Below, in pieces: positions 800 to 48,824 of a DNA stretch of 64,000 nt; positions within the stretch are counted from its first letter, which is position 1; every line of letters starts with the position of its first letter. The DNA is from Leucoraja erinacea (taxonomy: Eukaryota): the NCBI RefSeq assembly GCF_028641065.1, contig NC_073400.1:31868001-31932000 (forward strand), read 5' to 3'. The translations under genes and the position numbers were made by a program. The notes under the pieces are model-generated. The model worked only from the letters and a program-made list of their open reading frames with translations, made no database searches and had not been told where the DNA came from.

Positions 800-1222
800 T
801 ACTTAGGAGAATTTAGGAGATTGAGGGGGGATCTTATAGAAACTTACAAAATTCTTAAGGGGTTGGACAGGCTAGCTGCAGGAAGATTGTTCCCGATGTT
901 GGGGAAGTCCAGGACAAGGGGTCACAGCTTAAGGATAAGGGGGAAATCCTTTAAAACCGAGATGAGGAGAACCTTTTTCACACAGAGAGTGGTGAATCTC
1001 TGGAACTCTCTGCCACAGAGGGTAGTTGAGGCCAGTTCATTGGCTATATTTAAGAGGGAGTTAGATGTGGCCCTTGTGGCCAAGGGGATCAGGGGGTATG
1101 GAGAGAAGGCAGGTACGGGATACTGAGTTGGATGATCAGCCATGATCATATTGAATGGCGGTGCAGGCTCGAAGGGCCGAATGGCCTACTCCTGCACCTA
1201 ATTTCTATGTTTCTATGTTTCT
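800..1222 (+). mobile_element. CR1-like LINE 3' end
   Basis: RGDLIETYKILKGLD...RTRGHSLRI...[14 protein letters not shown], followed by a 3'UTR hairpin and a (TTCTATGT)n tail. Confidence 0.9.
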
Positions 1223-1254
1223 ACTGATGGTTTTATGGTTTTTCTTTGCAACAG

Positions 1255-4200
1255 GAATACTAAACTGAAAACCCTTCTATCCATTGGAGGCTGGAGTTTT
1301 GGAACTACCAGGTAAAGTCTTAACAGCGGGTGACCCAGACTTACCGCCTTTGTCCCTCACTATCCACGCCTCTGATTAGAGATACAGCATGAAAACAGGC
1401 CCTTCAGCCCATCAAGTCCACGCCAACCATCGATCACCCATTCACACTCGTTCTCTGCTATCCCATTTTTCACATCCACTCCTTGCACACTAGGGGGCAA
1501 TTTACAGAGGGGCTGATTAACTTACAAACCCGCACGTCTTTGGAATGTGGGAGGAAACCGGAGCACCCGGAGAAAGCCCACGCAGTCACTGGGTGAACGT
1601 GCAAACTCCACACAGACGGTACCACTGTGTCAATCAATCAATCAACCAATCGATCAAAAGTTCATAAGTGAAAGGAGCAGAATTAGGCCATTCGGCCCAT
1701 CAAGTCTACTCCGCCATTCAATCATGGCTGATCTATCTCTCCATCTCAACCCCATTCTCCTGCCTTCTCCCCATAACCCCCTGACACCCGCACTAATCAA
1801 GAATCTGTCAATCCCCTCCAATGACTTGGCCTCCACAGCCGTCTGTGGCCATTAATTCCACAGATTCACCACCCTCTGATTAAAGAAATTCCTCCTCATC
1901 TCCTTCCTAAAGGAACGTCCGAAATGCTGCCTGAGCTGCTGAGTTACACAAACACACAAACCAACCTCCCCTCCATTGACTCCATCTACACCTCACGCTG
2001 CCTCGGCAAGGCCAGCAGCATCATCAAGGACCAGTCTCACCCCCGGTCACTCCCTCTTCTCCCCTCTCCCATCGGGCACGAGGTAGAGAAGTGTGAAAAC
2101 AAACGCACACACACCTCCAGATTCAGGGGCAGTTTTTTCCCGGCTGTTATCAGGCAACTGAACCGTCCTCTCACCAACTAGAGAGCGGTCCTGACCTCCC
2201 ATTTACCTCATTGGAGACCCTCGGACTTTGCTGGCTTTACCTTGCACTAAACGTTATTCCCTTATCCTGTATCTGTACACTGTGAATGGATCGATTGTAA
2301 TCATGTTCTGTCTTTCCGCTGACTGGTTAGCACGCAACAAAAGCTTGTCACTGTACCTACTCACGGCGCTCTCCCTGCTCCCGTTAGATTCACCAACATG
2401 GTGGCCACGACGGACTCTCGTGCGACCTTTATCCGCTCGGCCGTCTCCTTCCTGCGGCAGTTTGGATTTGACGGCCTGGACCTGGACTGGCAATATCCCG
2501 GCTTCAGGGAAAGTCCGGCAGAGGATCGGAACCGGTTCACTGTCCTGCTGAAGGTGAGAGGGCCGGGAATCTCCCTGTTACACACTCACACTAGTCCACG
2601 TTACACACTCACACTAGTTCATGTTACACACTCACACTAGTTCCTGTTACACTAGTTCACGTTACACACTCACACGAGTTCATGTTACACACTCACACTA
2701 GTTCATGTTACACACTCACACTAGTTCATGTTACACACTCACACGAGTTCACGTTACACGCTCACATACCATGCACTAGTTCATGTTACACACTCACACA
2801 CGGTGCACTAGTCCATGTTACACTAGTTCACGTTACACACTCACACTAGTTCACGTTACACACTAACATATGGTGCACTAGTTCACGTTACACACTCACA
2901 CTAGTTCACGTTACACACTCACACCCAGTTCACATTACACAATCACACTAGTTCCTGTTACACACTCACATACCATGCACTAGTTCACATTACACACTCA
3001 TACATGGCGCACTAGTCCATGTTACACACTCACATTGCGCCCTATGCCGTTACACACTCACACAGTGCACTTCCCATTACACACTAACTTCGGGTTGACT
3101 CAAAAGAAGGGTCTCGACCTGAAACGTCACCCATTCCTTCTCTCCAGGGATGCTGCCTGTCCCGCTGAGTCACTCCAGTGTTTTTGCGTCCATCTTCGAT
3201 TGTGATCACGTGTCGTCTTTGCGTTGACTGGTTAGCATGAGGAGCTTTTTACTGTAGCTCGGTACACGTGACAGTAAACTGAACTGAGCGCCCTGTGTCA
3301 CTGTTTCCCCCTGGTGTTCTGCAGGAGTTGCGAGCTGCGATACAGGACGAGGCACACAATGATGACAAAGGCAGACTGCTACTAACCGCTGCTGTTGCCG
3401 CCTACAAGGAGGTCATCGATAACGCCTACAACATCTCTGCCATCTCACAGTGAGTACCCGCATGAGTCACGCATGGTGGCCGTGTGTCGGCACTGGGCTC
3501 TGTACTCGCTGGCGTTTAGAAGGATGAGGGGGGGCTCATTGAAACGTACAGAATAGTGAAAGGCCTGGAGAGAGTGGATGTGGAGAGGATGTTTCCAGTG
3601 GTGGGAGGAAACCGAAGATGTCTGAGAAAACCCAAGCAGGTCACGGGGAGAACGTGCAAACTCCGTACAGACAGCGCCCGTAGACAGGTTCGAACCGGGT
3701 TTCTGGCGCTGTGAGGCACCAACTCTACCGCTGCGCCACCCAATTGTACTTGAGTACTTGAGACAGGTTTGGGTGTATCTATGTAGAGTATTATCGGATG
3801 TAATTGGAGAGCATGCAATCTTTTCACCGCATCTCGGTAAAGATTCACTGCATTACGCAGGCCGAATAGATTGTAATCAGTCACGGTGGCGCAGCGGTAG
3901 AGTTGCTCCTTACAGCGCTTTCAGCGCCAGAGACCCGGGTTCAATCCCCACTACGGGCGCTGTCTGTACGGAGTTTGCACGTTCTCCCCGTGACTTCCGT
4001 GGGTTTTCTCCAAGCTCTTCGGTTTCCTCCCACACTCCAAAGTCGTACAGGTTTGTAGGTTAATTGGTTTGGGATAAACGTAACTTGTCCCCAGTGTGTG
4101 TAGGATAGTGTTAGTGTGCGGGGATCGCTGGTCGGCACGGACTCAGTGGGCCGAAGGGCCTGTTCCCGCGCTGTTTCTCTAAACTAAAGAACAACTAAAC

Positions 4201-7013
4201 TAAACTAAAGATATACACAAAATGCTGGAGTAACTCAGCGGGTCAGGCAGCATCTGTGGAGAACATGGATAGGTGACACCCTTCCTCAGACTCGACCTGC
4301 AACATCACCCATTCCTTCTCTCCAGAGATGCTGCCTGTCCCACTGAGTTACTCCAGCATTATATGTCTCTTCAGTTTAAATCAGCAGTTCCTTTCTAAAC
4401 TAAACCAAATGCTTGTTGCCACAGACATTGTGGGCTGAAGGGCCTGTTCCTGTCCTGCACTATTCGATGTCTCTTCTGCAGTTGTATAGGGCTCTGGTGA
4501 GACCACATCTGGAGTATTGTATACAGTTTTGGTCTCTTAATTTGAGGAAGGACATCCTTGTGATTGAGGCAGTGCAGCCAAGGTTCATGAGATTGATCCC
4601 TGGGATGGCTGGACTATCATATGAGGAAAGATTGAAACAGACTAGGCTTGTATTCACTGGAGTTTAGAATGATGAGGGGGCACCTTATAGAAACATATAC
4701 AATTATAAAAGGACTGGACAAGCTAGATGCAGGAAAATTGTTCCCAATGTTGGGCGAGTCCAGAACCAGAGGCCACAGTCTTAGAATAAAGGGGAGGCCA
4801 AAAAACGTTTTCACCCAGAGAGTTGTGAATTTATGGAATTCCCTGCCAAAGAGGGCAGTGGAGGCCAAGTACTGGATGGATTTAAGAGAGAGTTCGATAA
4901 AGCTCTAGGGGCTAGTGTAGTCAAGGGATATGGGGATAAAGCAGGCACGGGTTATTGATAGGGGACGATCAGCCATGATCACAATGAATGGCGGTGCTGG
5001 CTCAAAGGGCTGAATGGCCTCCTCCTGCACCGATTGTCTATGTTTCGATGCCTCCACGACTACATGAATCTAACAACCTTCTTTTAATCAGGTGCTTGGA
5101 CTTCATTTCTGTGAGGACGTTTGATTTCCATGGACACTGGGAGAAGGTGACTGGCCACAACAGCCCGCTCTTCCTGGGTCCCACTGACAAAGGCAAATTT
5201 ATTTTCTATAACATTGTGAGTAGATTGATAATATACACCTTCTTCATGGTCACTATTTTACCACCAGGTTCAGGAATAGCTGCTTCCCAACACACAAGGG
5301 GTCAGGCAGCACCTTGCACTGAACCTTATACATGTTATTCCCTTTATCCTCTATCTGTGCACCATGGGCAGCTGGATTGTAATCATGTGTAGTCCCTCCG
5401 CTGAATATAGACAGAGTGCTGGAGTAACTCAGCGGGTCAGGCAGCATCTGTGGAGAACATGGATAGGTGACGTTTCACAGAGTGCTGGAGTAACTCAGCG
5501 GGTGCAGCAGCATCTATGGAGCTAAGGAAATAGGCAACGTTTCGGGCCGAAACCCGGAAGGGTTTTGGCCTGAAACGTTGCCTATTTCCAGAAGGATTTC
5601 AGCCCGAAACGTTGCCTATTTCCAGAAGTGTTTCGGCCCGAAACGTTGCCTATTTCCTTAGCTCCATAGATGCTGCTGCACCATAATTCAGTGGGTCAGG
5701 CAGCATCTGTGGAGAACATGGATAGGTGACGTTTCACATAGTGCTGGAGTAACTCAGTGGGTCAGGCAGCATCTGTGGAGAACATGGATAGGCGAAGTTT
5801 CACAGAGTGCTGGAGTAACTCAGCGGGTCAGGCAGCATCTGTGGAGAACATGGATAGGTGACGTTTCACAGAGTGCTGGAGTAACTCAGCGGGTCAGGCA
5901 GCATCTGTGGAGAACATGGATAGGTGACGTTTCACAGAGTGCTGGAGTAACTCAGCGGGTCAGGCAGCATCTGTGGAGAACATGGATAGGTGGTCCACGT
6001 TTTCACAGAGTGCTGGAGTAACTCAGCGGGTCAGGCAGCATCTGTGGAGAACATGGATAGGTGACGTTTCACAGAGTGCTGGAGTAACTCAGCGGGTCAG
6101 GCGCATCTGTGGAGAACATGGATAGGTGACATGGATAGGAGTCTCAGATTGCAGCTCTCAGTCTGAAGAAGGGTCTCGACCCGAAACGTCACCCATTCCT
6201 TCTCTCCAGAGATGCTGCCTGTCCCACGAGTTACTCCAGCACTTTGTGTGCCTATCTACGAATGAAATTGTTACATGTTCGGTACAAATCGAGACTCTCC
6301 TGACTGCCCAGAATGTGTCAGCAGCGATTATTTCACTCGTCATAAATTCATGTGATAGGAGCAGAATCAAATCGACTCCGTTATTCGATCGTGGCTGATC
6401 TATCTCTCCCTCTCAACCCCATTCTCCTGCCTTCTCCCCGTAACCCATGACACCCGCACTAATCAAGAATCCATCTATCTCTGCCTTAAAAAATCTCCAT
6501 TGACTTGTGGCCTCCACAACCGTCTGTGGCAAAGAATTCCACAGATTCACCACCCTCTGACTAAAGAAATTCTTCTTCATCTCCTTCCCAAAGGAACGTC
6601 CTTTAATTCTGAGGCTGCTGCATAGCCTCTGGTCCTGGACTCTCCCACTAGTGGAAACATCCTCTCCACATCCACTCTATCCTGGCCTTTCACTGTTCAA
6701 TGAGGACCCCCCCCCCACCCCCCGTCATCCTTCTAAACCCCAGTATAGTCGAGTCCCAGTGCCGTTAAACCACTCGCCGTATGTTAACCTGACCTTCAGT
6801 AATGTTGGTGCATGCGCTTATCCCTGCAGGACTTTGCTCTGAAGTATTGGCGGCAGCAAGGGGCGGCTGCGGAGAAGCTGCTCGTCGGGTTCCCCACCTA
6901 CGGACGCACGTTCACCCCTGAGCAGCAGCGGCAACGCCGTGGGGGCTCCAGTGACGGGAGCCGGTCAAGTGGGACTCTTCACCCGCGAGCCAGGACTGGT
7001 GGCTTACTATGAG
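1255..7013 (+). CDS. GH18 chitinase-like protein (CHIA/CHIT1 family), probable non-catalytic chi-lectin; partial gene, 5 internal exons
   Basis: AG/GT-bounded exons: 1255-1311 ([18 protein letters not shown]), 2388-2553 ([38 protein letters not shown]...LLK), 3325-3449 ([10 protein letters not shown]...[25 protein letters not shown]), 5092-5215 ([27 protein letters not shown]...YNI) and 6830-7013 ([35 protein letters not shown]). Phases are compatible and the 57/166/125/124-nt sizes are typical of vertebrate chitinases. The last exon has a +1 C (6915-6918). 5' exons lie before the window; 3' exons were not found. Confidence 0.9.
2575..3090 (+). repeat. About 23-bp minisatellite (cacactagttcatgttacacact)n
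   Basis: Degenerate tandem copies directly after the catalytic-motif exon. Confidence 0.85.
3880..4208 (+). mobile_element. tRNA-derived SINE (V-SINE/HE1-like)
   Basis: A-box ggtggcgcagcgg, B-box gggttcaatccc, conserved core gagtttgcacgttctcccc, LINE-like 3' hairpin and (CTAAA)n tail. Other copies at about 1380-1620 (-), 3600-3740 (-), 53015-53250 (+) and 60305-60540 (+). Confidence 0.8.
4475..5045 (+). mobile_element. CR1-like LINE 3' fragment
   Basis: [18 protein letters not shown]...GHSLRIKG...WNSLP. Confidence 0.85.
5410..6135 (+). repeat. 66-bp minisatellite array with nested palindromic element
   Basis: About 8 copies of the same 66-bp unit, with an inverted-repeat element at about 5490-5685. 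Confidence 0.85.
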
Positions 7014-23220: not shown

Positions 23221-23771
23221 TCAGTGGAAGCTTTCAAAGACTGACAGCCAGACCCATTCTTCACAAGTCCTATTATCTAGAGTGGACCAGACACAGGTAT
23301 ATAACCCTTCATCTTTCTGTTCTACGCCTGCCAGGATCAACGAGGCGTCATGTATCACATGGACATTATCATGCTTGAAACGCCAGCCGAACTGCGATCA
23401 AAACCCGCTTCGCTATGTCAGGAGGTTTAGCACCATACCTGGCAATCGTAACATTGTATTTTCTCCAAATGACATTCAAGAGTTGGTGGTATTCGCGGGA
23501 TACTTTACAGGGCAGCGTAATGATACTACCCAGAGCTGCATCGAGGATATCCTCGCTAAATGATGCACCGTAATCACTGTCAGAATCTGACTCGTTCGTG
23601 CATCTTGGAAGCTGTTTCATCGGTGACTTGTCGAGGCTCCCCGTGCGTTCCGCCCGGCCAAGTTTGCTTCCTCTCCCCCATTCTCTGGAGATCGGACCTG
23701 TTCCAGTGCGGTGACTTGCCACACACCATCTCCACAAGGACCATGAATCCTATCCATCTCTGCAGTCCCAT
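23221..23771 (-). pseudogene. V-set Ig gene copy A, most divergent; frameshifted in this assembly (pseudogene or sequencing errors)
   Basis: ATG at 23771 with the same leader. Piecewise translation: REPR-QVTDETAPRCTNESDSDSDYGASFSEDILDAALGSIITLPCKV...NVIWRKYNVTIARY...WRFKHDNVHVIHDASLILAGVEQKDEGLYTCVWSTLDNRTCEEWVWLSV. The lesions are small indels, many in homopolymer or dinucleotide runs. Confidence 0.75.
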
Positions 23772-26334: not shown

Positions 26335-27677
26335 GTGTGTTGTGTAGACAGCCAGAGGAGAAGATGGGATTTATGTGAAGTTTCATTTTGTAATCATTAT
26401 TTATTAATGTCATAGTGTAATAGAGTCATAGAGTGATACAGTGTGGAAACAGGCCCTTCGGCCCAACTTGCCCACACTGGCCAACATGTCCCAGCTACAC
26501 TAGTCTCACCTGCCTGTGTTTGGTTCATATCCCTCCAAATCTGACCTCTCCATGTACCTGACTCACTGTTCCTTAAACATTGGGATCTAAATGTTGCCTC
26601 ACCAACGCAAGATGACCTCCCAACCTCTATACTCCATACTGTGACTGATGAAGGCCAAAGTGCCAAAAGCCTTTTTGACCACCGTATCTACCTGCAACTG
26701 CATCTTCAAGGAACCATGTACCTTCACTCATAGATCCCTCTGCTCTACAACATTCCCCAGAGCTGGACTATTCACTGTGTAGGTCCTGCACATGCAAAAC
26801 CGCCTACTTTTGTGTCAAAGAAACATAGAAAATAGGTGCAGGAGTAGAGGCCATTCGGCCCATCGAGCCTGCACCGCCATTCAATATGATCATGGCTGAT
26901 CATCCAACTCAGTATCCTGTACCTGCCTTCTCTCCATACCCCCTGATCTCTTTAGCCACAAGGGCCACATCTAACTCCCTCTTAAATATAGTCTTTACTT
27001 TTGTCCCTGTTTTGTTCCTGACAACATTCCCCATTATTTTTGTTCCTGTTCTCAACATCTGCGGACTCCCATGATTTTCCACATGTTGTTCCGTCCCCGT
27101 GTGGTCATGGACAATGTTGGACACAGCTCATAGAAGCCGGCGATGTTGCCCGTAGTGAGCAAGAGTTGCACAAAGTTCACACCCAACTCAATGCGGGCGT
27201 ACAAAGAATCACTCACACCGGCTGTCTTCAAGAGAGTTTATTTCCATTAATGATACATTTACCGATGCAAGCACGATCTGTCCCATTGCACTACATTTGC
27301 CCCATATCCCCCTAAACCTTTCCCTGTCCCAAGTGTGTATTAAATATTGTTACAATTCCCACCCCACCAGACAGTTCTATAAACCCACCGCCCCCTGAGT
27401 GAAAATGTTGCCTCTCAGGTTCCTATTAAATCTTGCCCCACTAACCTTAAACTTATGTCCCCCTGGTTCTTGATTCCCGTACCCCAGGTAAAAGATGTTT
27501 TGTGTTCACCCCTCTATTCCCCACATGATGAATTAAGTGACTACAATATAGAATACTGTTGTTGGCCTAAGTGTGTGAAGTTTATAATGATGGATGTTAT
27601 TGTGTGTTTGTGCTGTCCTGCCACTGCCTGTTGCTTCTGTCACATGGGGGGGCCTGTGCTGGGTCAGTGTGAGGTTT

Positions 27678-28194
27678 TTACTTCATGACAGCTTGGAAGT
27701 TAGTCTACATTTATCTTTGCCCGTTTGCCAAGTGCAGGAATACATCCCAAACATCACTCTTCTGTAAACCCTTGATGACCAACGAGGCATACCGTGTCTC
27801 ATCCACGTTTGTTTCCTTGAACTTCCAGCGGCCGGCCCCCCCTGGATAATTGGCACCTTTCCCTATAGTAAACACGGCCAGTGTCTTCGTCCCTTTAGTC
27901 CAGGTGACCTCAAAAGTCTTGGGTCCATCCTTCCCTGTGGGTACTTTACAGGGTAGCGTAGTAGAACCACCCTGGCTTGTCTCTCTATCCGTGAATTGTA
28001 ACTTGGTCGAAGCTGATATAGCACCACATTGTGGAGTATCTTGTTTGTTGACTTGCCGAGGGGCCCGTGCGTTCCACCCGGGCAAGTTTGCTTCCTCTCT
28101 CCCATTCTCTGGAGATCGGACCTGTTCCAGTTGCGGAGACTTGCCACACCATCTCCACAAGGACCAGGAATCATATCCATCTCTGCAGCCCCTT
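27678..28194 (-). pseudogene. V-set Ig gene copy B, pseudogene
   Basis: Start ATG is changed to AAG (28194-28192), an early GGA is changed to TGA, and there are several indels. The V domain is still readable (QVNKQDTPQC...GGSTTLPCKVPTGKDGPKTFEVTW...GMYSCTW..DKCRL). Confidence 0.8.
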
Positions 28195-33698: not shown

Positions 33699-34963
33699 TT
33701 CTGGGAGCGTTTCCGATGGGTTTGGCCCGAGGGTGTCCTTGTTGGTGCTGTGGTGGGGCGACGTATCTTCCCACGGCTCCGCCCTGGGCCCCGCTCTAAA
33801 AAAGAGCTCTGGGGGTAGTGGGAAGCGGTCACCAGGCTTTCACCAGCTCGGTACCTGCTGGTGGATGCCGAGGCGTGCTGCCAACTGGGTGTCTTCACCC
33901 TGCTCGGTCCTGGCCCTGCCCTCATGAGGCCTACAGGCTTGGCCGCCTCTTCCAGCTCCTTGAGCCTTTTCGCCAAGTCGGCCCCGAATAGTAGTGCCTC
34001 CTTTTCTGGCGCCGGAGCTTTGCAAAGGCCCGCGTATTTGGGGTTGAGGGCAGGCCTGATGTTTACACGCCTTAAATTGTTGAGCTCATACTGCGTGTTA
34101 CACATTAGGGCCAGCACGTCCTGCTGAGGTGTAGAGAGCTCTGCGTTCCCCGTGGACCGAGCAAAGGCGGTAATGGCTGCGGTGTGGAGCTTCAGGATAC
34201 GCTGCATCTTCAGCTCTTGTGTCCTGATATGCTGTCCCAGCTGGCTCCATATCTGGCCGTTTACGGTCTTTACTCGGAGTGATTCACAGTTTTCCGGCGC
34301 TGTGTAAGTGTCAAGGGCCTCTTGTAAGATTTTCTCTTGCAATGGCTTATTGGAGAGCCTGTTGATACTGGCCGCCATTCTTGGCGCTAGCATCATTCCG
34401 GTCCTCGGGGGCGCCGCATACCTGCTGACTACACCCAGTAGCTCTTCTTCCTCCAGCTCGCCTGGCATGCTTGCGCTGTCGTCCGCCTGCCCTTGTGATA
34501 GGCCAGCCCAGTCCTGGCCTCCCTTACTGACCTCAAACAAGGAGGGAACAGAAGGGTGTGGTGATGGTTTGGTGGAGGCCAAAGCCCGTCCTCCTTGGAG
34601 ATGCCTTGCCTGCATCTCCTCCTCGAGCATCTGCTCGAGCAGCTGCCTTATGCAGCTTAAGCTGCCGTCTCCCCGTTTCGCCGGTGGAGAGTGTTCCCGT
34701 TCCTCCGACGAGTCGGAGGTCACCGGCCGGTCTGTTTTTCGGGTTGATTTTCTCCCTGTGCGGGGCGTCGCAATCGGCGGCACAGGGAGCGGCTCGGCGT
34801 CGGGTGTGCGGGAGCGTTCATACAGCTCCTCAGCCGCTGGTGGCTGCCGCCCAGATATTGACCCCTCCTCGGGTGGAGTTGGGCAGGCAGTCCTCCTTGT
34901 TGGTCGCTTTCGGGTAGCCATAGCTTTCTCCGTTAGCGACTCTCTGTAATACAAAAGACTCAC
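33695..34963 (-). CDS. DIRS ORF1 (gag-like)
   Basis: 422-aa open frame directly upstream of the RT ORF. Its stop overlaps the ORF2 start (ATGA). The true start may be the internal Met of MATRKRP. Confidence 0.75.
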   Translation of the reverse strand: MSLLYYRESLTEKAMATRKRPTRRTACPTPPEEGSISGRQPPAAEELYERSRTPDAEPLPVPPIATPRTGRKSTRKTDRPVTSDSSEEREHSPPAKRGDGSLSCIRQLLEQMLEEEMQARHLQGGRALASTKPSPHPSVPSLFEVSKGGQDWAGLSQGQADDSASMPGELEEEELLGVVSRYAAPPRTGMMLAPRMAASINRLSNKPLQEKILQEALDTYTAPENCESLRVKTVNGQIWSQLGQHIRTQELKMQRILKLHTAAITAFARSTGNAELSTPQQDVLALMCNTQYELNNLRRVNIRPALNPKYAGLCKAPAPEKEALLFGADLAKRLKELEEAAKPVGLMRAGPGPSRVKTPSWQHASASTSRYRAGESLVTASHYPQSSFLERGPGRSRGKIRRPTTAPTRTPSGQTHRKRSQK

Positions 34964-35899
34964 TTACCTGAGGTCTTGTCTTTATCCTGCCGCTGGAGAG
35001 CCTGGCTCCAGCTGCTGCCGCTGTTGCGCTGCTGACGTAATGTCGCGCCTGCGCACTGGGTGGGTTCTTCACGTAGTCACTCACGTGACTCCGAAGTAAA
35101 ATTCCACAGATTCACCACTCTCTGTGTGAAAAATGTTTTTCTCATCTCAGTCCTAAAAGATTTCCCCCTTGTCCTTAAACTGTGACCCCTTGTCCTGGAC
35201 TTCCCCAACATCGGGAACAACGTTCCTGCATCTAGCCTGTCCACCCCTTGAGAATTTTATTACCTTCTGTCAGGTCTCCGCTCAACATCTGAAGTTCTAG
35301 AGAAACCAATCCATGATTATCCAACCTGTCCATATAACTTGCTATTGAGGGAGTGCAACGTAGGTTCACCAGGTTAATACCCGGGATGGCGGGACTGACA
35401 TGTCAACTTCTTCTTTCGTGTGGCGTGCACAGCCTAAAGTTGTAGGACAACTTGTTCTATTTGATGTTTAAGTAGAAACTGCAGATACTGGAAAATCGAA
35501 GGTACACAAAAATGCTGGAGAAACTCAGCGGGTGCAGCAGCATCTATGGAACAAAGGAAATAGGCAACGTTTCGTCCCGAAGGTTCCTGGAGGTTGCAGG
35601 TGGTTGCCGGAGGTTGCAGGTAGTGGAAGCAGGTAGGGAGACAGACAAAAACCTTAGGGAACCGCACGGAAACCTTGGGTGGGGCGCAAAGTCTCCAGAG
35701 GTTTCCGTTCAGGTTTCCTAAGTGGGACAGGGGCATTAGTGCAACCTTGGACATTCCATAGACGTTCATCGTTGACCTCAGTGTCGTGTCGTGTTCAACA
35801 GCCTGATGGTTGTTGGGAAGGAAGAATTGATCCAACGCCATCCCAGCTGCCGGCTCAGATTGAGTATAAACTGTGGAACCAGCGCAGGTGCCAAGGGCT

Positions 35900-36251
35900 G
35901 TGGTGGTGACGTGGCGTGGCTGGGACATCTGGTCCGATGGGTTGACCAGAACGAGACGTGGTGGAGACACAAGCAGGATGTGTGGGGCGCCTGGTTGGCC
36001 GCTGGCAGCTGGGATGACGTTGTTCTTGTTAAAACGTTAACGGCTGATGCAACGACACGTTTGGCAGAGGGTGGAGAGGTCGCGGCTGACTCCGGCCAAT
36101 GCTCCGGGGGAGGCAGTGATTGGTTGAATGTACGTGAGGGCAGACAATGAGGGGCAGGAGAAGCCGGGAGTCGGTATAAAAGGAGCGAGCGATGGCAGGA
36201 GATGTGAACAAGACCGACCCCGTCACCCTGTGTGGAGACTCCGGAGCTGGT
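35900..36251 (+). promoter_or_regulatory. Promoter and non-coding exon 1 of V gene copy C
   Basis: TGACGTGG at 35907-35914, two CCAAT boxes, TATAAAAG at 36175-36182 and donor ctg|GTaacc at 36250. The ERSE is mutated in this copy (36105-36123). Confidence 0.65.
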
Positions 36252-36829
36252 AACCAACCCTGTGGATCCTTCAAGTGTCTGTGAGTGATGGGGGTGGGAT
36301 TGTCTCTGTTCACTGTTCCCCCAGTTCAGAAGCCTGATAGCAGAGGGGAAGAAGCTGTTCCTGAGTCTGGTGGTGCGCGCTTTCAAGCTTCTGTACCTTC
36401 TGCTAGACAGGACCAGGGAGAAGGAGGAATGACCGGGGTGGGACAAGTGATGGAGTCATAGAGTCACAGCGAGACCTTCGGCCCAACTTGCCCGCACCCA
36501 CCAACGTGTCCCCATCAATACTAGACCCACCTGCCTGCGTTTGGCCCTTACCCCTCTAATCCTGTCCTATCAATGTACCTGTCTAACTGATTCTTAATCA
36601 TTGTGATAGTACCTGCCCCAACTACCTCTTCCGGCAGCTCGTTCCAAACACCCTCCACCCTTTGTGTAAAAAAGTCACCCCTCAGTTTCACATGAAATCT
36701 TTCCCCCCCCCTCGCCTTAAACCGATGTCCTCTGGTTCTCGATTCCCCAACTCTGGGCGGGTTCAGGGAATGTCATCATGAATCCTACTGAGTTGCAATA
36801 AGGTGACCCATTGTTTCACCCACAGGAAC

Positions 36830-37345
36830 ATGGGACTGCAGAGATGGATAGGATTCATGGTCCTTGTGGAGATGGTGTGGCAAGTCTCCGCAACTGGAAC
36901 AGGTCCGATCTCCAGAGAATGGGGAGAGGAAGCAAACTTGCCCGGGTGGAACGCACGGGCCCCTCGACAAGTCAACAAACAAAGTTCTCCAGAATGCGGT
37001 GTTAGGCCAGCTGCGACCAAGATGAAATACACGGATGTGACGGCACGCAAGGGTGGTTCAGCTACGCTACCCTGTAAAGTACCCACAGGGAAGGATGGAC
37101 CCAAGAGTTTTGAGGTCACCTGGAGTAAAGGGAAGAGGACATTGGCCGTGTTTACTAAAGGGAAAGGTGCGACCTATCCAGGGGCTCCCGGCCGCTGGAC
37201 GTTCAAGGAAACAAAAGTGGATGTGAAACGGGATGCCACGTTGGTCATCACGGGTTTACAAGAGGCTGATATTGGGATGTATTCCTGCACTTGGATCACT
37301 GGCCAAGGGGAATGTAGACAAAATATCAAGCTGACAGTGAAGTGA
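36830..37345 (+). CDS. Secreted single V-set Ig-domain protein, copy C (171 aa: signal peptide, propeptide, RAPR, V domain)
   Basis: ATG follows a splice acceptor (cacccacAG|gaacATG). N-terminus is hydrophobic (MGLQRWIGFMVLVEMVWQVSA). V-set motifs: GGSATLPC, VTW, DATLVITGLQEADIGMYSC, KLTV*. No TM segment or C domain. Confidence 0.9.
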   Translation: MGLQRWIGFMVLVEMVWQVSATGTGPISREWGEEANLPGWNARAPRQVNKQSSPECGVRPAATKMKYTDVTARKGGSATLPCKVPTGKDGPKSFEVTWSKGKRTLAVFTKGKGATYPGAPGRWTFKETKVDVKRDATLVITGLQEADIGMYSCTWITGQGECRQNIKLTVK

Positions 37346-40300
37346 AACCTCACACTGACCCAGCACAGGCCCCCCCATGTGACAGAAGCAACAGGCAGTG
37401 GCAGGACAGCACAAACACACAATAACATCCATCATTATAAACTTCACACACTTAGGCCAACAACAGCATTCTATATTGTAGTCACTTAATTGATCATGAG
37501 GGGAATAGAGGGGTGAACACAAAACATCTTTTACCTGGGGTACGGGAATCAAGAACCAGAGGGACATAAGTTTAAGGTTAGAGGGGCAAGATTTAATAGG
37601 AACCTGAGGGGCAACATTTTCACTCAGGGGGCGGTGGGTTTATAGAACTGTCTGGTGGGGTGGGAATTGTAACAATATTTAATACACACTTGGGACAGGG
37701 AAAGGTTTAGGGGGATATGGGGCAAATGTAGTGCAATGGGACAGATCGTGCTTGCATTGGTAAATGTATCATTAATGGAAATAAACTCTCTTGAAGACAG
37801 CCGGTGTGAGTGATTCTTTGTACGCCAGCATTGAGTTGGGTGTGAACTTTGTGCAACTCTTGCTCACTACGGGCAACATCGCCGGCTTCTATGAGCTGTG
37901 TCCAACATTGTCCATGACCACACGGGGACGGAACAACATGTGGAAAATCATGGAGTCCACAGGTGTTGAGAACAGGAACAAAAATAACGGGGAATGTTGT
38001 CAGGAACAAAACAGGGGCAAAAGTAAAGGCAGATGACTATATTTAAGAGGGAGTTAGATGTGGCCCTTGTGGCTAAAGGGATTAGGGGGTATGGAGAGAA
38101 GGCAGGTACAGGATACTGAGTTGGATGATCATCCATGATCATATTGAATGGCGGTGCTGGCTCGAAGGGCCGAATGGCCTCTACTCCTGCACCTATTTTC
38201 TATGTTTCTATGACACAAAAGTAGGCGGTTTTGCAGATAGTGGAGATGGTTGTGAAAAATTGCAGCAGGATCCTGAAATATTGGCCAGTTGGGCTGAGGA
38301 ACGGTTGATGGAATTTAATACAGAGTAATGTGAGGTGTTGTGTTTTGGGGAGTCTAACATGTGCAGGACCTACACAGTGAATAGTCCAGCTCTGAGGAAT
38401 GTTGTATAGCAGAGGGATCTATGAGTGAAGGTACATGGTTCCTTGAAGATGCAGTTGCAGGTAGATACGGTGGTCAAAAAAACTTTTGGTACTTTGGCCT
38501 TCATCAGTCACAGTATGGAGTATAGAGGTTGGGAGGTCATCTTGCGTTGGTGAGGCAACATTTAGATCCCAATGTTTAAAGAACAGTGAGTCAGGTACAT
38601 GGAGAGGCCAGGTTTGGAGGGATATGAACCAAACACAGGCAGGTGAGACTAGTGTAGCTGGGACATGTTGGCCAGTGTGGGCAAGTTGGGCCGAAGGGCC
38701 TGTTTCCACACTGTATCACTCTATGACTCTATTACACTATGACATTAAATAAGTAATGATTAACAAAATGAAACTTCACATAACTCCCATCTTCTCCTCT
38801 GGCTGTCTACACAACACACTCGTTGACTGCAGCAGATACAATGAATGTCACACTGGTGGTACCTGGGCACCTCTGGAAAATGTTCTTCTCAAGATGTGAT
38901 TGAGAAGATGATGTAACATAGAACATGGAACAGCACAGGAACAGGCCCTTCGGCCCACAAGGTCCATGCTGAACATGATGCCAAGTTCAGCTAATCTCCT
39001 CTGCCTGCACCTGATCCATAATCTCAATTCCCTGCATATCCATGAGACTTTTTAGATAAAGACTCTGAACTATTGTATCTGCCTCCACCACCCACAGCAT
39101 CGTGTTCCAGGCACCCACCACCCTCTGTGTCCCGCACATCTTTAAAATTTTCCTATCTCAATAGACAATAGACAATAGGTGCAGGAGTTGGCCATTCGGC
39201 CCTTCGAGCCAGCACCGCCATTCACTGTGATCACCGCCATCCACAATCAGTACCCCATTCTTGCCTTCTCCCCATATCCCTTGACTCCGCTATATTTAAG
39301 AGCTCTATCTAACTCTCTCTTGAAAGCCTCCTACCCTAAAGCGATGCCCTCTAGTCTTTGGCATTTCCACTCTGCGCAAATTGGTTCTGACTGTCTAACC
39401 TAGAGAACCTGTCTGGCTCTCATTGAAACATAGAAACATAGAAATTAGGTGCAGGAGTAGGCCATTCGGCCTTTCGAGCCTGCACCGCCATTCAATATGA
39501 TCATGGCTGATCATCCAACTCAGTATCCTGCACCTGCCTTCTCTCCATACCCCCTGATCCCTTTAGCCACAAGGGCCACATCTAACTCCCTCATAAAATA
39601 AAGCCAATGAACTGGCCTCAAATATCTTCTGTGGCAGAGAATTCCACAGATTCACCACTCTCTGTGTGAAAATTGTTTTTTCTCATCTCAGTCCTAAAAG
39701 ATTTCCCCCTTATCCTTAAACTGTGACCCCTTGTCCTGGACTTCCCCAACATCGGGAACAATCTTCCTGCATCTAGCCAGTCCAACCCCTTAAGAATTTT
39801 ATTACCTTCTGTCAGCTCTCCGCTCAACATCTGAAGTCCTAGAGAAACCAATCCAAGATTATCCAACCTGTCCATATAACTTGCTATTGAGGGAGTGCAA
39901 CGTAGGTTTACCAGGTTAATACTCGGGATGGCGGGACTGACATGTCAACTTCTTCTTTCGTGTGGCGTGCACAGCCTAAAGTTGTAGGACAACTTGTTCT
40001 ATTTGATGTTTAAGTAGAAACTGCAGATACTGGAAAATCAAAGGTACACAAAAATGCTGGAGAAACTCAGCGGGTGCAGCAGCATCTATGGAGCGAAGGA
40101 AATAGGCAACGTTTCGTCCCGAAGGTTCCTGGAGGTTGCAGGTGGTTGCCGGAGGTTGCAGGTAGTGGAAGCAGGTAGGGAGACAGGCAAAAACCTCCGG
40201 GAACCGCACGGAAACCTTGGGTGGGGCGCAAAGTCTCCAGAGATTTCCGTTCACGTTTCCCAAGTGGGACAGGGGCATTAGTGCAACCTTGGACATTCCA

Positions 40301-40439
40301 TAGACGTTCATCGTTGACCTCAGTGTCGTGTCGTGTTCAACAGCCTGATGGTTGTTGGGAAGGAAGAATTGATCCAACGCCATCCCAGCTGCCGGCTCAG
40401 ATTGAGTATAAACTGTGGAACCAGCGCAGGTGCCAAGGG

Positions 40440-40791
40440 CTGTGGTGGTGACGTGGCGTGGCTGGGACATCTGGTCCGATGGGTGGCCAAAACGAGACGT
40501 GGTGGAGACACAAGCAGGATGTGTGGGGCGCCTGGTTGGCCGCTGGCAGCTGGGATGACGTTGTTCTTGTTAAACGTTAACGGCTGATGCAACGACACGT
40601 TTGGCAGAGGGTGGAGAGGTCGCGGCTGACTCCGGCCAATGCTCCGTGGGAGGCAGTGATTGGTTGAATGTACGTGAGGGCAGACAATGAGGGGCAGGAG
40701 AAGCCGGGAGTCGGTATAAAAGGAGCGAGCGATGGCAGGAGATGAGAACAAGACCGACCCCGTCACCCTGTGTGGAGACTCCGGAGCTGGT
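40440..40791 (+). promoter_or_regulatory. Promoter and non-coding exon 1 of V gene copy D
   Basis: TGACGTGG at 40449-40456, CCAAT-N9-CCACG on the reverse strand at 40645-40663, TATAAAAG at 40715-40722 and donor at 40790. Confidence 0.65.
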
Positions 40792-41410
40792 AACCAACCC
40801 TGTGGATCCTTCAAGTGTCTGTGAGTGATGGGGGTGGGATTGTCTCTGTTCACTGTTCCCCCAGTTCAGAAGCCTGATAGCAGAGGGGAAGAAGCTGTTC
40901 CTGAGTCTGGTGGTGCGCGCTTTCAAGCTTCTGTACCATCTGCTAGACAGGACCAGAGAGAAGGAGGAATGACCGGGGTGGGACAAGTCTTTGATTTTTT
41001 TGGTTGTAGATGGAGTCACTGGTGGGGAGTGTGGTCTGTGTGATGGACTGGGCTCCATCCACAACTCTGCAATATCTTGTGATCTTGGGCTCAGAGCTGT
41101 TCCCAAACCAAGCTGTGATGCAACCCCACAGTCTGCTCTCTGTGGTGCATCTGTAGAAGGTCCTAAGAGACATTGGAGACTTGTCGTATTTCCTCTGTCT
41201 CTGAGGAAGTCGATGCATTGGTGTGCCTCCTTGGCTGCCACTTCAATGTTGTTGGTCCACGACAGGTCAAAGCAACTTAAACTAAACCAGGCGGGAGCTG
41301 TAGAAGCTGCACAGCGACATTGCCCAGTGTGGTGGCAGCAGCTTCAGGGAATGTCATCATGAATCCTACTGAGTTGCAATAAGGTGACCCATTGTTTCAC
41401 CCACAGGAAC

Positions 41411-41926
41411 ATGGGACTGCAGAGATGGATAGGATTCATGGTCCTTGTGGAGATGGTGTGGCAAGTCTCCGCAACTGGAACAGGTCCGATCTCCAGAGAA
41501 TGGGGAGAGGAAGCAAACTTGCCCGGGTGGAACGCACGGGAGCCTCGACAAGTCAACAAACAAGATACTCCAGAATGCGGTGCTAGGCCAGCTGCGATCA
41601 AGATGAAATACACGGATATAACGGCACGCAAGAGTGGTTCAGCTACGCTACCCTGCAAAGTACCCACAGGGAAGGATGGACCCAAGACTTTTGTGGTCAC
41701 CTGGAGTAAAGGGAGCGGGACACTGGGCGTGTTGACTGAAGGGGAAGGTGCCAATTATCCAGGGGGGACCGACCGATGGAGGTTCATGAATACAAACGTG
41801 GTTGAGACACGGGATGCCTCGTTGATCATCACAAGTTTACGAGAGACTGATATTGGGATATATTCCTGCGCTTGGTTCACTGGCCAAAAGGAATGTAGAC
41901 TAAATATCAAGCTGACAGTGAACTGA
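41411..41926 (+). CDS. Secreted single V-set Ig-domain protein, copy D (171 aa, REPR site)
   Basis: Intact ORF paralogous to copy C, with SGSATLPC, VTW and DASLIITSLRETDIGIYSC. All four Cys are conserved. Confidence 0.9.
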   Translation: MGLQRWIGFMVLVEMVWQVSATGTGPISREWGEEANLPGWNAREPRQVNKQDTPECGARPAAIKMKYTDITARKSGSATLPCKVPTGKDGPKTFVVTWSKGSGTLGVLTEGEGANYPGGTDRWRFMNTNVVETRDASLIITSLRETDIGIYSCAWFTGQKECRLNIKLTVN

Positions 41927-42709
41927 AACCTCACACAGATTCAGCACAGCCCCCCCCCCCCATGTGTCAGCAACAACAGGCAATGGCAGGACAGCACAAA
42001 CACACAATAACATCCATCATTATAAACTTCACACACTTAGGCCAACAACAGCATTCTATATTGTAGTCACTTAATTCATCATGTGGGGAATAGAGGGGTG
42101 AACACAAAACATCTTTTACCTGGGGTACGGGAATCAAGAACCAGGGGGACATAAGTTTAGGGTGAGAGGGGCAAGATTTAATAGGAACCTGAAGGGCAAC
42201 ATTTTCACTCAGGGGGCGGTGGGTTTATAGAACCGTCTGGTGGGGTGGGAATTGTAACAATATTTAATACACACTTGGGACAGGGAAAGGTTTAGGGGGA
42301 TATGGGGCAAATGTAGTGCAATGGGACAGATCGTGCTTGCATCGGTAAATGTATCATTAATGGAAATAAACTCTCTTGAAGACAGCCGGTGTGAGTGAAT
42401 CTTTGTACGCCAGCATTGAGTTGGGTGTGAACTTTGTGCAACTCTTGCTCACTACGGGCAACATCGCCGGCTTCTGTGAGCTGTGTCCAACATTGTCCAT
42501 GACCACACGGGGACGGAACAACATGTGGAAAATCATGGAGTCCGCAGGAACAAAAGTAAAAGGGAATGTTGTCAGGAACAAAACAGGAACAGAAGTAAAG
42601 GGAGATGACACAAAAGTAGGCGGTTTTGCAGATAGTGGAGATGGTTGTGATAAATTGCAGCAGCATCCTGAAATAATGGCCAGGTGGGCTGAGGAACGGT
42701 TGATGGAAA

Positions 42710-44560
42710 ACTCTTTGGTGCTGCGGATACCATGACCATGCAGCGAGCGTCCTTGTGTGTCAGTTCCCACAGGGGTCAGATATGTCGCTGAGGTTGGGAA
42801 TAAATTTCCCCTGGTAGTTGACCATTCCAAGGAACCTTTGTAGGCTCACGACATCAGCAGGAACCAGCATTTTGTTGATAGGTGCAGTTTTTGATGGGTC
42901 TGGTCTGAGACCATCACTTGTGAAGACATGTCCAACGTCAGTATCTTCTGGAACTCGAAACTTGCCCTTCAAGGGATTGAGTTTGAGCTGAATGCCTTTG
43001 GCATTGTATAGTTCTTTCTTCAGATTGGCGTCATGTTCAGTCCAATCACGTCTGCAGACGAGAATGTCATCAACAATGATGGCGCATGGGTACTCAACAA
43101 ACAATTGTTCCATCGTGCGCTGGAAAACGTCGCTGGCAGAGTTGATGCCAAAGGGCATTCTCAGAAATTTGTATCGGCCAAAGGGGGTGCCGAATGAAAT
43201 GAGATTGGACGAGTCTGGGTCCAGTGGAATCTTCCAAAACGAGCTCTTGGCGTCCAGAATTGAGAATACTGATGTGTTGCCTACCTGAGCAGCAACTTCC
43301 TCTAATAATCGCATTGGGTAGTGTGGCCGTTTGATGGCAGTTAAGGTCTCTGGGGTTTATGCAGATATGGACCTCCTCTTTGTTTTTCTTTGTTGCAACC
43401 ACCATTGGGGAAACCCAGTCAGATGGGTCTGTAACCTCGGCAATAACACCCATGGAGACCATCCGCTTGAGTTCATTGTGTACTCTGTCACGCATGGCAT
43501 GCAGAGCATGATGCTGTTCTCGGACCACAGGAGTTATGTTGGGATCGACAACAATGTGGTATTTGACAGGCAATTTGCTAAGCTTGGCGTTAAACAGATC
43601 TTTGTATTGAGAGAGTACCTGTTGAGTGTGTCCATCAGCGAGAAAGAGTTGATGGACGGCGTAGCCAAACTATACCAGGCCTAGATCGTGGATTGCGTTG
43701 ATACTGAGCAAAGTCTCTGAATCCCCCTTAACAATATAAACCTTTAAGGTATGAGTCTGCTCGTCTATGGGGCACTTTAAATCAGCTTGTCCAAGAGGGT
43801 GTAGAACATCTCCCCCGTAAGTCCAAAGCGTGGCCGAGGCCTTTTCAATACATGCAGCATAACGAATTTTTAAAACTCTGTTAACGAGATGACATTGCAT
43901 TTTGCGCCAGTATCAACCTTAGCGATTAAAGGCCTGTTAATCACAAACATGGTTACCTCCGGGTCAAGTTGCTTGTTAGACGAAGGGAGGGGAGAATGTA
44001 TCTGTACTTTCTGAGAGTGGAGCGGGGGATGGCAAATCAAGCTCTTGGAAGTCATTATCAACAAGCTCATGTTGCAGCAGGTGCAGGCTCATCCTTGACG
44101 CTGCTTGAGTCACACGGGAACGGCAGCATCGAGAAAAGTGGTTTAACTTCTTGCAGAAATTACAGGCTTTACCATAAGCAACGCAGAACTGCTGACACCT
44201 AGCAAGAAAATAGTTGCAATTTTGACATCGAACAGACCTTGTATGTGTGTTACAAGAGGAGTAGTCTGCAAGATTAACACTATGCTGCGAACAGTGACCA
44301 GAGGACACAGACTCAGTGTGGGAAGATGTTATCTCAGCATCCAACAGGCATGCTCTGCTTGATTAAGGGTTAGGTCAGTATTACAAAGAAGTTCACCCCG
44401 TAACTTGCTATCAAGCATTCCTCCAACAAGTTTGTCATGGATGAGTTCTTCGCACAGATCTCGAAATTAGCAGCGTGCAGCCATTTGTTTTAAGTCACTG
44501 ATAAAACCTTTGGTTCACCAACCTGTTGCATACGAGCATAAAACTTGGTCCGTTCAATAA
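42710..44560 (-). mobile_element. Ty3/Gypsy LTR retrotransposon internal fragment (gag-protease-RT), decayed
   Basis: Zinc knuckle CNFCKKLNHFSRCC, protease VDTGAKCNVI and RT LDAKSSFWKIPL...YKFLRMPFGINSASDVFQ...IIVDDILV. Frameshifted; no LTRs seen. Confidence 0.88.
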
Positions 44561-45389
44561 TATGCTCAAGAAGGAACTGCAGATGCTGGAAGATCAAAGG
44601 TACACAAAAATGCTGGAGAAACTCTGATCTGTTCTGTAGTAAATGCCTACTATGTTCTGTTGTGCTGAAGCAAAGCAAGAATGTCATTGTCCTATTAGGG
44701 ACACATGACAATCAACTCACTTGAACACTTGAACTTGAGTGATCGCCAGTCCAGTGAATTGGCCTCCACTGCCCTCTGTGGCAGAGAATTCCACAGATTC
44801 ACAACTCTCTGGGTGAAAAGTTTTTTTTCATCTCGGTCCTAAATGGCCGACTCCTTATTCTTAAACTGTGTGGCCCCTGGTTCTGGACTCCCCCAACATT
44901 GGGAATATTTTTCCTGCATCTATCTAGTCTGCCGGATCCCTTAAGAATTTTATATGTTTTTATAAGTTCCAGTCTCATCCTAAATTCCAGTGAATACAAG
45001 CACATTCGATCCATTCCTTCGTCATATGTCAGGGGTTGAAGATTGCAAACTTCACGAGGTCCGCCCTGTTTCGACTAATGCAATCAATTCGACGAGCACA
45101 AACGGAAGATCAAATGGAACAAAGGTAGACAAAAATGCTGGAGAACCTCAGCGGGTGCAGCAGCATCTATGGAGCGAAGGAAATAGGCAACGTTTTCGTC
45201 CCGAAACCCTTCTAGAAATAGGCAACGTTTCGGGCCGAAACCCTTCCGGGTTTCGGCCCGAAACGTCGCATATTTCCTTCGCTCCATAGATGCTGCTGCA
45301 CCCGCTGAGTTTCTCCAGCATTTTTGTCTACCTCCGTTCAATAATATAGTGGTGGAGTCTCTTGGAGTCTCTTGGAGTTAGTTGAGGCA

Positions 45390-45745
45390 GGCTTCTGAAC
45401 TGGGCGAACAGTGAACAGAGACAATCCCACCCCCATCACTCACAGACACTTGAAGGATCCACAGGGTTGGTTACCAGCTCCGGAGTCTCCACACAGGGTG
45501 ACGGGGTCGGTCTTGTTCTCATCTCCTGCCATCGCTCGCTCCTTTTATACCGACTCCCGGCTTCTCCTGCCCCTCATTGTCTGCCCTCACGTACATTCAA
45601 CCAATCACTGCCTCCCACGGAGCATTGGCCGGAGTCAGCCGCGACCTCTCCACCCTCTGCCAAACGTGTCGTTGCATCAGCCGTTAACGTTTAACAAGAA
45701 CAACGTCATCCCAGATGCCAGTCTCCACCACGTCTCGTTCTGGTC
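45390..45745 (-). promoter_or_regulatory. Orphan copy of the V-gene promoter/exon 1 without a coding exon
   Basis: TATA at 45542-45549 and ERSE at 45601-45619. Has the same junction sequence (tggtcaactcatcacagttgaggcag) as at about 29085; no V exon follows. Confidence 0.6.
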
Positions 45746-47339: not shown

Positions 47340-47690
47340 GTGGTGACGTGGCGTGGCTGGGACATCTGGTCCGATGGGTTGACCAGAACGAGACGTGGTG
47401 GAGACACAAGCAGGATATGTGGGGCGCCTGGTTGGCCGCTGGCAGCTGGGATGACGTTGTTCTTGTTAAACGTTAACGGCTGATGCAACGACACGTTTGG
47501 CAGAGGGTGGAGAGGTCGCGGCTGACTCCGGCCAATGCTCCGTGGGAGGCAGTGATTGGTTGAATGTACGTGAGGGCAGACAATGAGGGGCAGGAGAAGC
47601 CGGGAGTCGGTATAAAAGGAGCGAGCGATGGCAGGAGATGAGAACAAGACCGACCCCGTCACCCTGTGTGGAGACTCCGGAGCTGGTAAC
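47340..47690 (+). promoter_or_regulatory. Promoter and non-coding exon 1 of V gene copy E
   Basis: TGACGTGG at 47344-47351, ERSE at 47541-47559, TATAAAAG at 47611-47618 and the same donor motif. Confidence 0.65.
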
Positions 47691-48308: not shown

Positions 48309-48824
48309 ATGGGACTGCAGAGATGGATAGGATTCATGGTCCTTGTGGAGATGGTGTGGCAAGTCTCCGCAACTGGAACAGGTCCGATCTCCAGAGAATG
48401 GGGAGAGGAAGCAAACTTGCCCGGGTGGAACGCACGGGAACCTCGACAAGTCAACAAACAAGATACTCCAGAATGCGGTGCTAAGCCAGCTGCGATCAAG
48501 ATGAAATACACGGATATAACGGCACGCAAGAGTGGTTCAGCTACGCTACCCTGCAAAGTACCCACAGGGAAGGATGGACCCAAGACTTTTGTGGTCACCT
48601 GGAGTAAAGGGAGCGGGACACTGGGCGTGTTGACTGAAGGGGAAGGTGCCAATTATCCAGGGGGGACCGACCGATGGAGGTTCATGAATACAAACGTGGT
48701 TGAGACACGGGATGCCTCGTTGATCATCACAAGTTTACGAGAGACTGATATTGGGATATATTCCTGCGCTTGGTTCACTGGCCAAAAGGAATGTAGACTA
48801 AATATCAAGCTGACAGTGAACTGA
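48309..48824 (+). CDS. Secreted single V-set Ig-domain protein, copy E (171 aa, near-identical to D)
   Basis: Intact ORF differing from D by one amino acid (GARP vs GAKP). The downstream flank differs from D (no Gypsy insertion). Confidence 0.88.
   Translation: MGLQRWIGFMVLVEMVWQVSATGTGPISREWGEEANLPGWNAREPRQVNKQDTPECGAKPAAIKMKYTDITARKSGSATLPCKVPTGKDGPKTFVVTWSKGSGTLGVLTEGEGANYPGGTDRWRFMNTNVVETRDASLIITSLRETDIGIYSCAWFTGQKECRLNIKLTVN

Follow-up and report, generated by a model that had tools for sequence, protein, structure and literature searches.

A 64,000-nucleotide (nt) stretch of the Leucoraja erinacea genome (NCBI RefSeq assembly GCF_028641065.1, contig NC_073400.1, positions 31,868,001 to 31,932,000; from here on, the window) carries copies A to F of a tandem gene family whose intact members appear to encode small, likely secreted proteins with a single immunoglobulin (Ig) V-set domain. 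The promoter and leader of these genes form a near-identical block, the V domains behind them are deeply diverged at silent sites, the two parts give conflicting trees, and the ratio of non-synonymous to synonymous rates (dN/dS) exceeds 1 at about 40% of V-domain sites. We consider it probable that these are tandem single-V genes whose promoter and leader are kept alike by gene conversion and whose V domain is old and positively selected, each copy binding a different, changing outside ligand. A first-pass annotation had likened the same contrast to the evolution of toxins and antimicrobial peptides, with coding DNA diverging faster than its non-coding surroundings. The contrast is real but mostly an effect of conversion, and nothing was found that marks the proteins as toxins or antimicrobial peptides, the net charge of the mature part spanning +12 to -11, unlike that of a uniformly cationic family.

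A near-identical 5' block ahead of deeply diverged V domains

The frozen part is a 5' block of about 1 kb that differs by about 1% among the 12 clustered copies A-L; copy M stands alone elsewhere. The block of copy C is 98-99% identical to those of clustered F-L and 92-94% identical to that of lone M, and C matches the broken copies A and B at 95% identity over long shared blocks. The 98-99% identity spans roughly -890 to +129/+145, counted from the start codon (ATG), even between copies whose V domains fail strict DNA alignment. Promoter and exon 1 differ at 0-3 of ~310 nt among the nine intact clustered copies, in agreement with the first-pass statement that promoters are nearly identical. 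Mismatches in the 5' block versus the mature part number 8/625 vs 115/375 for C/F, 5/625 vs 169/369 for C/H, and 3/625 vs 154/363 for C/L. Between subfamilies the V domains differ at 21-54% of fourfold-degenerate sites, with a synonymous divergence (dS, Nei-Gojobori method, NG86) of 0.42-1.04. The silent tree length is 1.53 for the mature part and 0.096 for the block, lone M accounting for 0.062 of the latter and the nine intact clustered copies for 0.034. At the residue level, the first-pass counts proved exact: C and D differ at 1/46 pre-pro and 36/125 mature residues, with five codons differing synonymously only (Fisher p=4e-5), and C and F at 2/46 and 63/125 (p=3e-9).

Two features expected of conversion, a region too alike for the age of its paralogues and conflicting trees, are both present. 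The block of lone M is about 6% from every clustered copy, 33 columns splitting it from all nine intact clustered copies, yet in the V domain M and L (dS 0.31) lie closer together than L and C do (0.58). This implies that homogenisation of the clustered blocks postdates the split of the V lineages. The block and mature partitions reject each other's tree in the approximately unbiased (AU) test (p-AU 0.002 and 5e-5), and the leader is a patchwork, with PGW common to L and C/D/E and AGR common to F and H-J. Conversion tracts reach into residues 49-59 in I/J (global p 0.002) and J/K (global p 0.007), and a D/F tract at 128-135 is marginal (global p=0.08). The homogenisation boundary falls inside the coding exon, at residues 43-63. 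Contigs from another organism carry M's letter at promoter sites 36017 (depth 69.6/69.6) and 36154 (370.3/370.3), where the clustered copies carry another; only these two sites are concerned. In a protein tree, the Rhinoraja protein groups with L (86/85). Judged from the sequences, the frozen part fits gene conversion and not recent duplication or hypermutation, and conversion is the probable copying mechanism; the first-pass annotation had mentioned conversion only as a possible addition, whereas it chiefly accounts for the frozen part.

The near-identity noted at first pass holds for the promoter and exon 1 and fails in the middle of the intron, where C and D do not align from -381 to -67. 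This part (36449-36761) exists in two non-aligning versions, one in D/E/L/M and one in the other copies, both flanked by homogenised arms. Nor is the C/D 3' flank frozen, as 27/596 nt differ, no less than at the silent fourfold sites of the V domain (3/46, p=0.47). Within subfamilies (C/B and H/I/K) both flanks differ by 1-2% and the domain by 8-17%; for instance, H/I differ by 0.5% in the 5' block, 8.5% in the domain and 1.2% in the 3' flank, and C/B by 1.1%, 17% and 1.7%. The 3' flanks are unalignable between most subfamilies, that of F, for example, giving no alignment with that of C. Among the youngest pairs, the D and E units (39430-42609 vs 46328-49535) are 97% identical, and the G and J V domains are identical but for a 2-nt insertion in G, possibly an assembly error. 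With conversion chiefly responsible for the freezing, the flanks cannot serve as a neutral reference here. The family is a clean case, with M as a built-in unconverted control, in which exons appear to evolve faster than introns largely through conversion of the flanks, and a caution for toxin-like claims built on coding-versus-flank divergence.

Assembly collapse is an unlikely source of the block identity, the 374-nt promoter contig of a short-read run (which may be the assembly's own source) having a depth of 413 vs 25-35 for V-domain contigs. The reading of one of these contigs as D/E at single-copy depth was rejected, the mismatch count not fitting (37 vs 43). In a further run, X3, the promoter contig (window 36212-36352) has a depth of 1084 vs ~27 for V-domain contigs; rough as contig depth is, this suggests a much larger copy number in that organism.

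Structure of and selection on the V domain

The domain has the B-strand Cys, C-strand Trp, D-x-x-x-Y-x-C motif and nine-strand sandwich of a V-set. Copy C matches the Pfam V-set model at E=1e-11, all three copies tested score above the cut-off, and the hallmark residues C82, W98, D147, Y151 and C153 are invariant in 9/9 aligned copies. Cysteines 56 and 162 are also invariant and may form a second disulfide (C56-C162). All ten intact copies have an RxxR sequence, J and K lacking the site at 43-46 and having their own at 40-43; a signal peptide and furin-type cleavage at RxxR are predicted. The structure model has a predicted local distance difference test (pLDDT) score of 84.9, and its fold matches CAR, nectins, a TIGIT partner and TIM domains at template modelling (TM) scores of ~0.7 and 19-32% identity. 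No membrane anchor or cytoplasmic tail was found, for the reading frame stops after strand G with no conserved donor, and a poly(A)-type signal lies downstream in 9/10 intact copies. These features point to small single-V-domain proteins that are likely secreted.

Codon models, in our own implementation, were fitted to the ten intact copies over 121 gap-free mature columns, the broken copies A, B and G being excluded. With the pre-pro and mature regions taken separately, dN/dS (w) is 1.25 under M0 in the mature part vs 0.36 in the pre-pro region. Twice the log-likelihood difference (2dL) between M1a and M2a is 27.9 (p=9e-7), with a class of w=2.7 at 41% of sites, and that between M8a and M8 is 27.4 (p=2e-7); across models the selected class takes 41-44% of sites at w 2.5-2.7. 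The result persists when residues 47-65 are removed (p=2e-5), with F61 codon frequencies (p=5e-7), with six deep lineages (p=2e-5), in H-M (p=0.006), and in the ungapped set H/I/K (w=3.76, p=5e-4). The diversifying selection proposed at first pass is therefore upheld family-wide, but not by the pairs C/D and C/F on their own. A mature dN/dS at or below 1, with dS well above flanking divergence, had been taken in advance to mean 5' conversion only, and C/F shows this (NG86 dN/dS 0.91, dS 0.42 vs 1.3% in the 5' block); C/D has an NG86 dN/dS of 1.71, above 1 but not significant alone (p=0.28).

Seventeen sites have a posterior above 0.9, comprising 5/12 outward GFCC' sites, 0/9 on the BED face, 3/12 in the BC and FG loops, and the remainder in the N-terminal arm and other loops. 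Selected sites thus include some in the loops that resemble complementarity-determining regions and extend beyond them; the unbroken C/F runs noted there earlier, TGKDGPKS/KEDGAADK (residues 86-93) and ITGQGE/LVNNVP (156-161), are confirmed in the alignment. The mean posterior is 0.76 on the 12 outward GFCC' sites vs 0.31 on the nine BED sites (p=0.002), the faces having been allotted with the posteriors already in view, by alternation starting at core residues and without use of coordinates. The data support positive selection on the V domain across the family, with sites favouring the GFCC' face and the FG loop.

Several points weigh against the reading that we favour, beginning with that assignment of faces. 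The site tests rest on a single assumed tree, its branch lengths scaled from M0, and on posteriors from naive empirical Bayes, and C/D/F alone give p=0.08. Strongly conserved sites make up only 12-16%, so that much of the V domain may be near neutral, and three of the 13 copies are broken. The protein AU test does not reject a tree in which the cluster is held together against M and the Rhinoraja protein (p-AU 0.09). In 3/3 tissue-unlabelled RNA runs (1-5% of each scanned), neither exon 1 nor the coding exon of C received any reads; with leaders 98-99% alike across the family, the result says that no member was seen in the portion scanned, not that the genes are silent.

Possible ligands and alternative explanations

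Under the conversion and selection history proposed here, neighbouring copies would overwrite each other through their long identical 5' stretch, so that a single promoter and a single secretion leader are maintained. Tracts reaching the binding surface would likely be removed by selection, and the diverged V domain, no longer pairing, would escape conversion. Once released at RxxR and secreted, it would bind through its front sheet, the GFCC' face. The weakest step is the class of ligand. By analogy with the bat PSG-like CEACAMs, this may be a microbial or parasite surface molecule, the proteins serving as pathogen decoys or in recognition, a suggestion to which we give not quite an even chance. 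Should the proteins bind microbes, the immunity of cartilaginous fish would gain a V-domain repertoire that does not rearrange, as well as a stable scaffold of one domain in which a sheet face varies.

The same history could instead serve reproduction or chemical signalling (seminal fluid, egg-capsule gland, gamete recognition or a pheromone), driven by sexual or partner co-evolution. Secreted, lineage-restricted, fast-evolving families are as typical of reproduction as of immunity, a single shared promoter suits a single gland, the zero reads in the three RNA runs fit a narrow adult tissue, and copy F has a sub-threshold Izumo-Ig match (E=0.029). Ruminant CEACAM32, an analogue, is reported to be testis-specific (PMC7042247). 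The fold and feature neighbours of the skate domain, however, are immune and adhesion receptors (CAR, nectins, TIGIT, CD200/CD200R), and we regard a reproductive role as rather unlikely, although a serious contender.

Less likely still, the genes may encode type II membrane proteins, anchored by the hydrophobic stretch once a 31-residue upstream extension is included, with cleavage at RxxR releasing the V domain. The upstream ATG is indeed the start used by the NCBI models and the relative P0009, and 11/12 clustered copies have it in frame. However, lone copy M is intact with the upstream frame broken, MGLQ is the start of the Rhinoraja model, the upstream ATG lies just 17 nt past the TATA-like box, and the hydrophobic stretch is short and contains a Glu. 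The GTGAGT donor is retained in M and A although the upstream ATG frame is broken in both.

A reading with 5' conversion only would have the V domains drift under relaxed constraint around a small conserved core, the dN/dS excess arising spuriously from alignment, recombination or multi-base changes. It would account for the between-subfamily NG86 dN/dS of 0.62-1.21, the 84% of sites that M1a places at w=1, the C/D/F result, the broken copies and the marginal D/F tract. Already weakened, it now seems improbable: neutral models are rejected in 6/7 mature-domain data sets, the ungapped H/I/K among them, I and K differ by nine non-synonymous and no synonymous changes, 2dL is still ~22 when double substitutions are permitted, and the two sheets differ. 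Equally doubtful is an extension of our preferred reading in which the family would be a germline, non-rearranging, secreted single-V recognition repertoire, under its one conversion-kept promoter and leader, co-expressed with the interleaved chitinases as a two-chain, VCBP-like mucosal defence of a jawed vertebrate. Finally, it is highly improbable that the clustered copies are young (~1%) and that targeted hypermutation makes the mature exon outpace its flanks by a factor of tens, an idea put forward for toxin genes: in H/I, silent V sites do exceed both flanks (3/48 vs 7/600 in the 3' flank, p=0.03), and in C/D they exceed the 5' block (p=0.009), but the youngest pairs, which in practice refute it, lack any excess (D/E 1/375 and G/J 0/385 in the mature part, 1/760 nt together, vs 15/2430 in the flanks), and the unalignable 3' flanks, the grouping of the Rhinoraja protein with L, and C-type V sequences with a differing promoter in other organisms' contigs also tell against it.

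The family, its surroundings and its relation to known systems

Each gene has a short exon 1, an intron, and a single exon coding for signal peptide, pro-piece and V-set domain (Table 1). Thirteen leader copies occur in the genome, ten of them intact (A, B and G are broken), with A-L inside ~105 kb of the window's contig (C24) and M 19 Mb off. The promoter block is found at 16 places, three without a coding exon, all on that contig at the cluster or M. A 125-nt common repeat in the intron is the only part of the block found elsewhere in the genome, and a transposon or long terminal repeat (LTR) origin of the block was rejected on this confinement to the cluster and M. Around M, a scan of 66/94 frames returned one reverse transcriptase piece, one weak match and nothing else.

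Table 1. Positions of family members and their parts in the window
Feature	Position	Strand	Remarks
Copy C 5' block (promoter, exon 1, intron ends, signal/pro sequence)	35936..36974	+	~-890 to +145 from ATG
Copy C TATA-like box	36175	+	same in 11 clustered copies
Copy C exon 1 (with TATA-like box)	36175..36280	+	splice donor GTGAGT at 36281
Copy C upstream in-frame ATG	36192	+	31 residues longer if used
Copy C intron	36281..36825	+	545 nt, contains common repeats
Copy C open reading frame	36830-37345	+	intact, 171 residues
Copy C pre-pro region	36830..36967	+	46 residues; predicted signal peptide and pro-piece ending RxxR
Copy C mature part	36968..37345	+	Cys-bearing N-terminal arm and V-set domain, stop directly after strand G
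Copy C AATAAA	37780..37785	+	likely poly(A) signal
Copy D 5' block	40296..41555	+	
Copy D coding exon	41411..41926	+	intact, 171 residues
Copy E coding exon	48309..48824	+	intact, 171 residues, one residue off D
Copy F coding exon	55575..56090	+	intact, 171 residues, 62% identity to C
Copy B	27651..28194	-	broken: lost start codon, early stop, frameshifts; inverted duplicate of C unit
Copy A	23239..23771	-	broken: several frameshifts; H/J-type V domain
Orphan 5'-block piece	45388..45721	-	no coding exon

In a motif scan the clustered V genes are interleaved with a chitinase-type array. The array numbers at least six chitinase-type genes, whole or partial, at window -948..7002 (+), at 60784..69480 (-), and on the contig to ~32.03 Mb; some appear co-duplicated with V genes (the G/J and H/I/K blocks). 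The 3' part of a GH18-type chitinase lies in the window at 60784..64000 (-) and has a chitin-binding-type last exon. B and C sit head to head on an inverted duplication (26793-29090 vs 35936-38235, 95% identity). Between these units lies a DIRS-type retrotransposon (30576-35102, -) with a gag-like frame of 408 residues, a reverse transcriptase of 340, a 297-residue frame and a tyrosine recombinase of 307; a second copy at 8669-13514 is 77% identical. Decayed LTR-retrotransposon-like protease and reverse transcriptase frames lie between D and E (42760-44500, -).

Close relatives form only seven clusters, labelled uncharacterized proteins, from L. erinacea and Rhinoraja longicauda. A relative, P0009 (202 residues), comes from a 900-nt contig that contains the exon junction; the genomic span being 1154 nt, this contig is most likely a spliced transcript. 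P0009 differs from C at 25/125 mature and 2/46 pre-pro residues, and from D at 26/125 and 1/46. A profile search of 1.84 billion representatives found, among the matches listed (150 of 3246 at E 0.001), P0007 as the sole full-length single-domain match, the others being multi-Ig proteins. No longer membrane-bound parent was found, the 74 matches among 7999 scored longer candidates all being generic Ig proteins, which is weak evidence. Elsewhere in the genome, the V domains closest to the family are those of the ordinary phase-1 V exons L030:5260-5508, L031 and L032 (contigs C13 and C1534), at 30-41% identity, which we take to be of TIGIT/CD200/nectin type and which are candidate kin of the family's parent.

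The nectin, CAR, TIGIT and CD200 V-sets are the best sequence, fold and feature neighbours of the skate domain, their fold matches having TM scores of ~0.7 and 21-32% identity. The skate domain lacks their C domains, membrane anchor and tail, has no (T/M)FP motif in its FG loop, and is not on a phase-1 exon of its own. Nectin/PVR/TIGIT proteins carry an A-X6-G motif on C'-C'' and a T(F/Y)P motif in the FG loop. The former is present in C and F, takes the form G-X6-G in D/E, and is absent in H-M; the latter is missing from 9/9 aligned skate copies, and the nectin-like exons L030 and L032 have it. The transmembrane segment and cytoplasmic tail of that group are likewise missing. The N domain of CEACAM and PSG proteins is not known to have a B-F disulfide; the skate family has the canonical cysteines, and its leader and V share one exon. 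No CEACAM occurs among 36 PDB sequence matches or among the fold matches listed.

The closest analogues are the bat PSG-like secreted CEACAMs and ruminant CEACAM32. The bat proteins form a lineage-specific expansion with one IgV domain, many pseudogenes and selected sites on the CFG face, and are proposed pathogen decoys (PMC5594555). The skate family resembles them in being a secreted one-IgV family with lineage-specific expansion, pseudogenes, positive selection and sites on the same sheet face; they differ in having separate leader, V and IgC-like exons (PMC5594555), where leader, pro-piece and V share one exon in the skate, which also has the RxxR site and two extra cysteines. CEACAM32 has one membrane-bound paralogue (PMC7042247), unlike the 12 skate copies that share a block with its boundary within the coding exon.

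In the red/green opsins, conversion homogenises the flanks while a selected region stays divergent (PMC3924837); C/B and H/I/K show the same low flanks and divergent domain, except that the skate peak is a whole domain and that different subfamilies now have just the 5' side in common. Protochordate VCBPs are secreted and polymorphic, a C-terminal chitin-binding domain following two V domains in one chain (PMC2632668, PMC4757023). They are like the skate proteins as secreted V-domain proteins, the skate genes lying among chitinases with chitin-binding-type last exons, and unlike them in that all ten intact skate copies have one V domain and then stop, a layout that precludes fusion. Conotoxin precursors, whose three regions lie roughly on separate exons (PMC3862624), share with the family a conserved signal, a diverse mature part and conserved cysteines; the skate differs in its 125-residue Ig fold on one exon, with no sign of venom function. 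In the rearranging receptors (Ig, TCR, IgNAR) the V segment stops past the F-strand Cys at a recombination signal, and a J segment with (F/W)GxG supplies the G strand. The skate V exon itself encodes the G strand in the germline and (F/W)GxG is absent, recombination signals not having been searched separately.

The skate family thus works like secreted, positively selected IgV families and falls outside CEACAM/PSG, nectin/TIGIT, VCBPs and the rearranging receptors. It appears undescribed within the searches run, with no mention of it or of a one-exon pre-pro-V layout in the literature searched, which held few subscription titles, or in the consulted part of the skate genome paper. The evolutionary pattern is known from other systems; the family and its one-exon pre-pro-V layout would be new within that literature.

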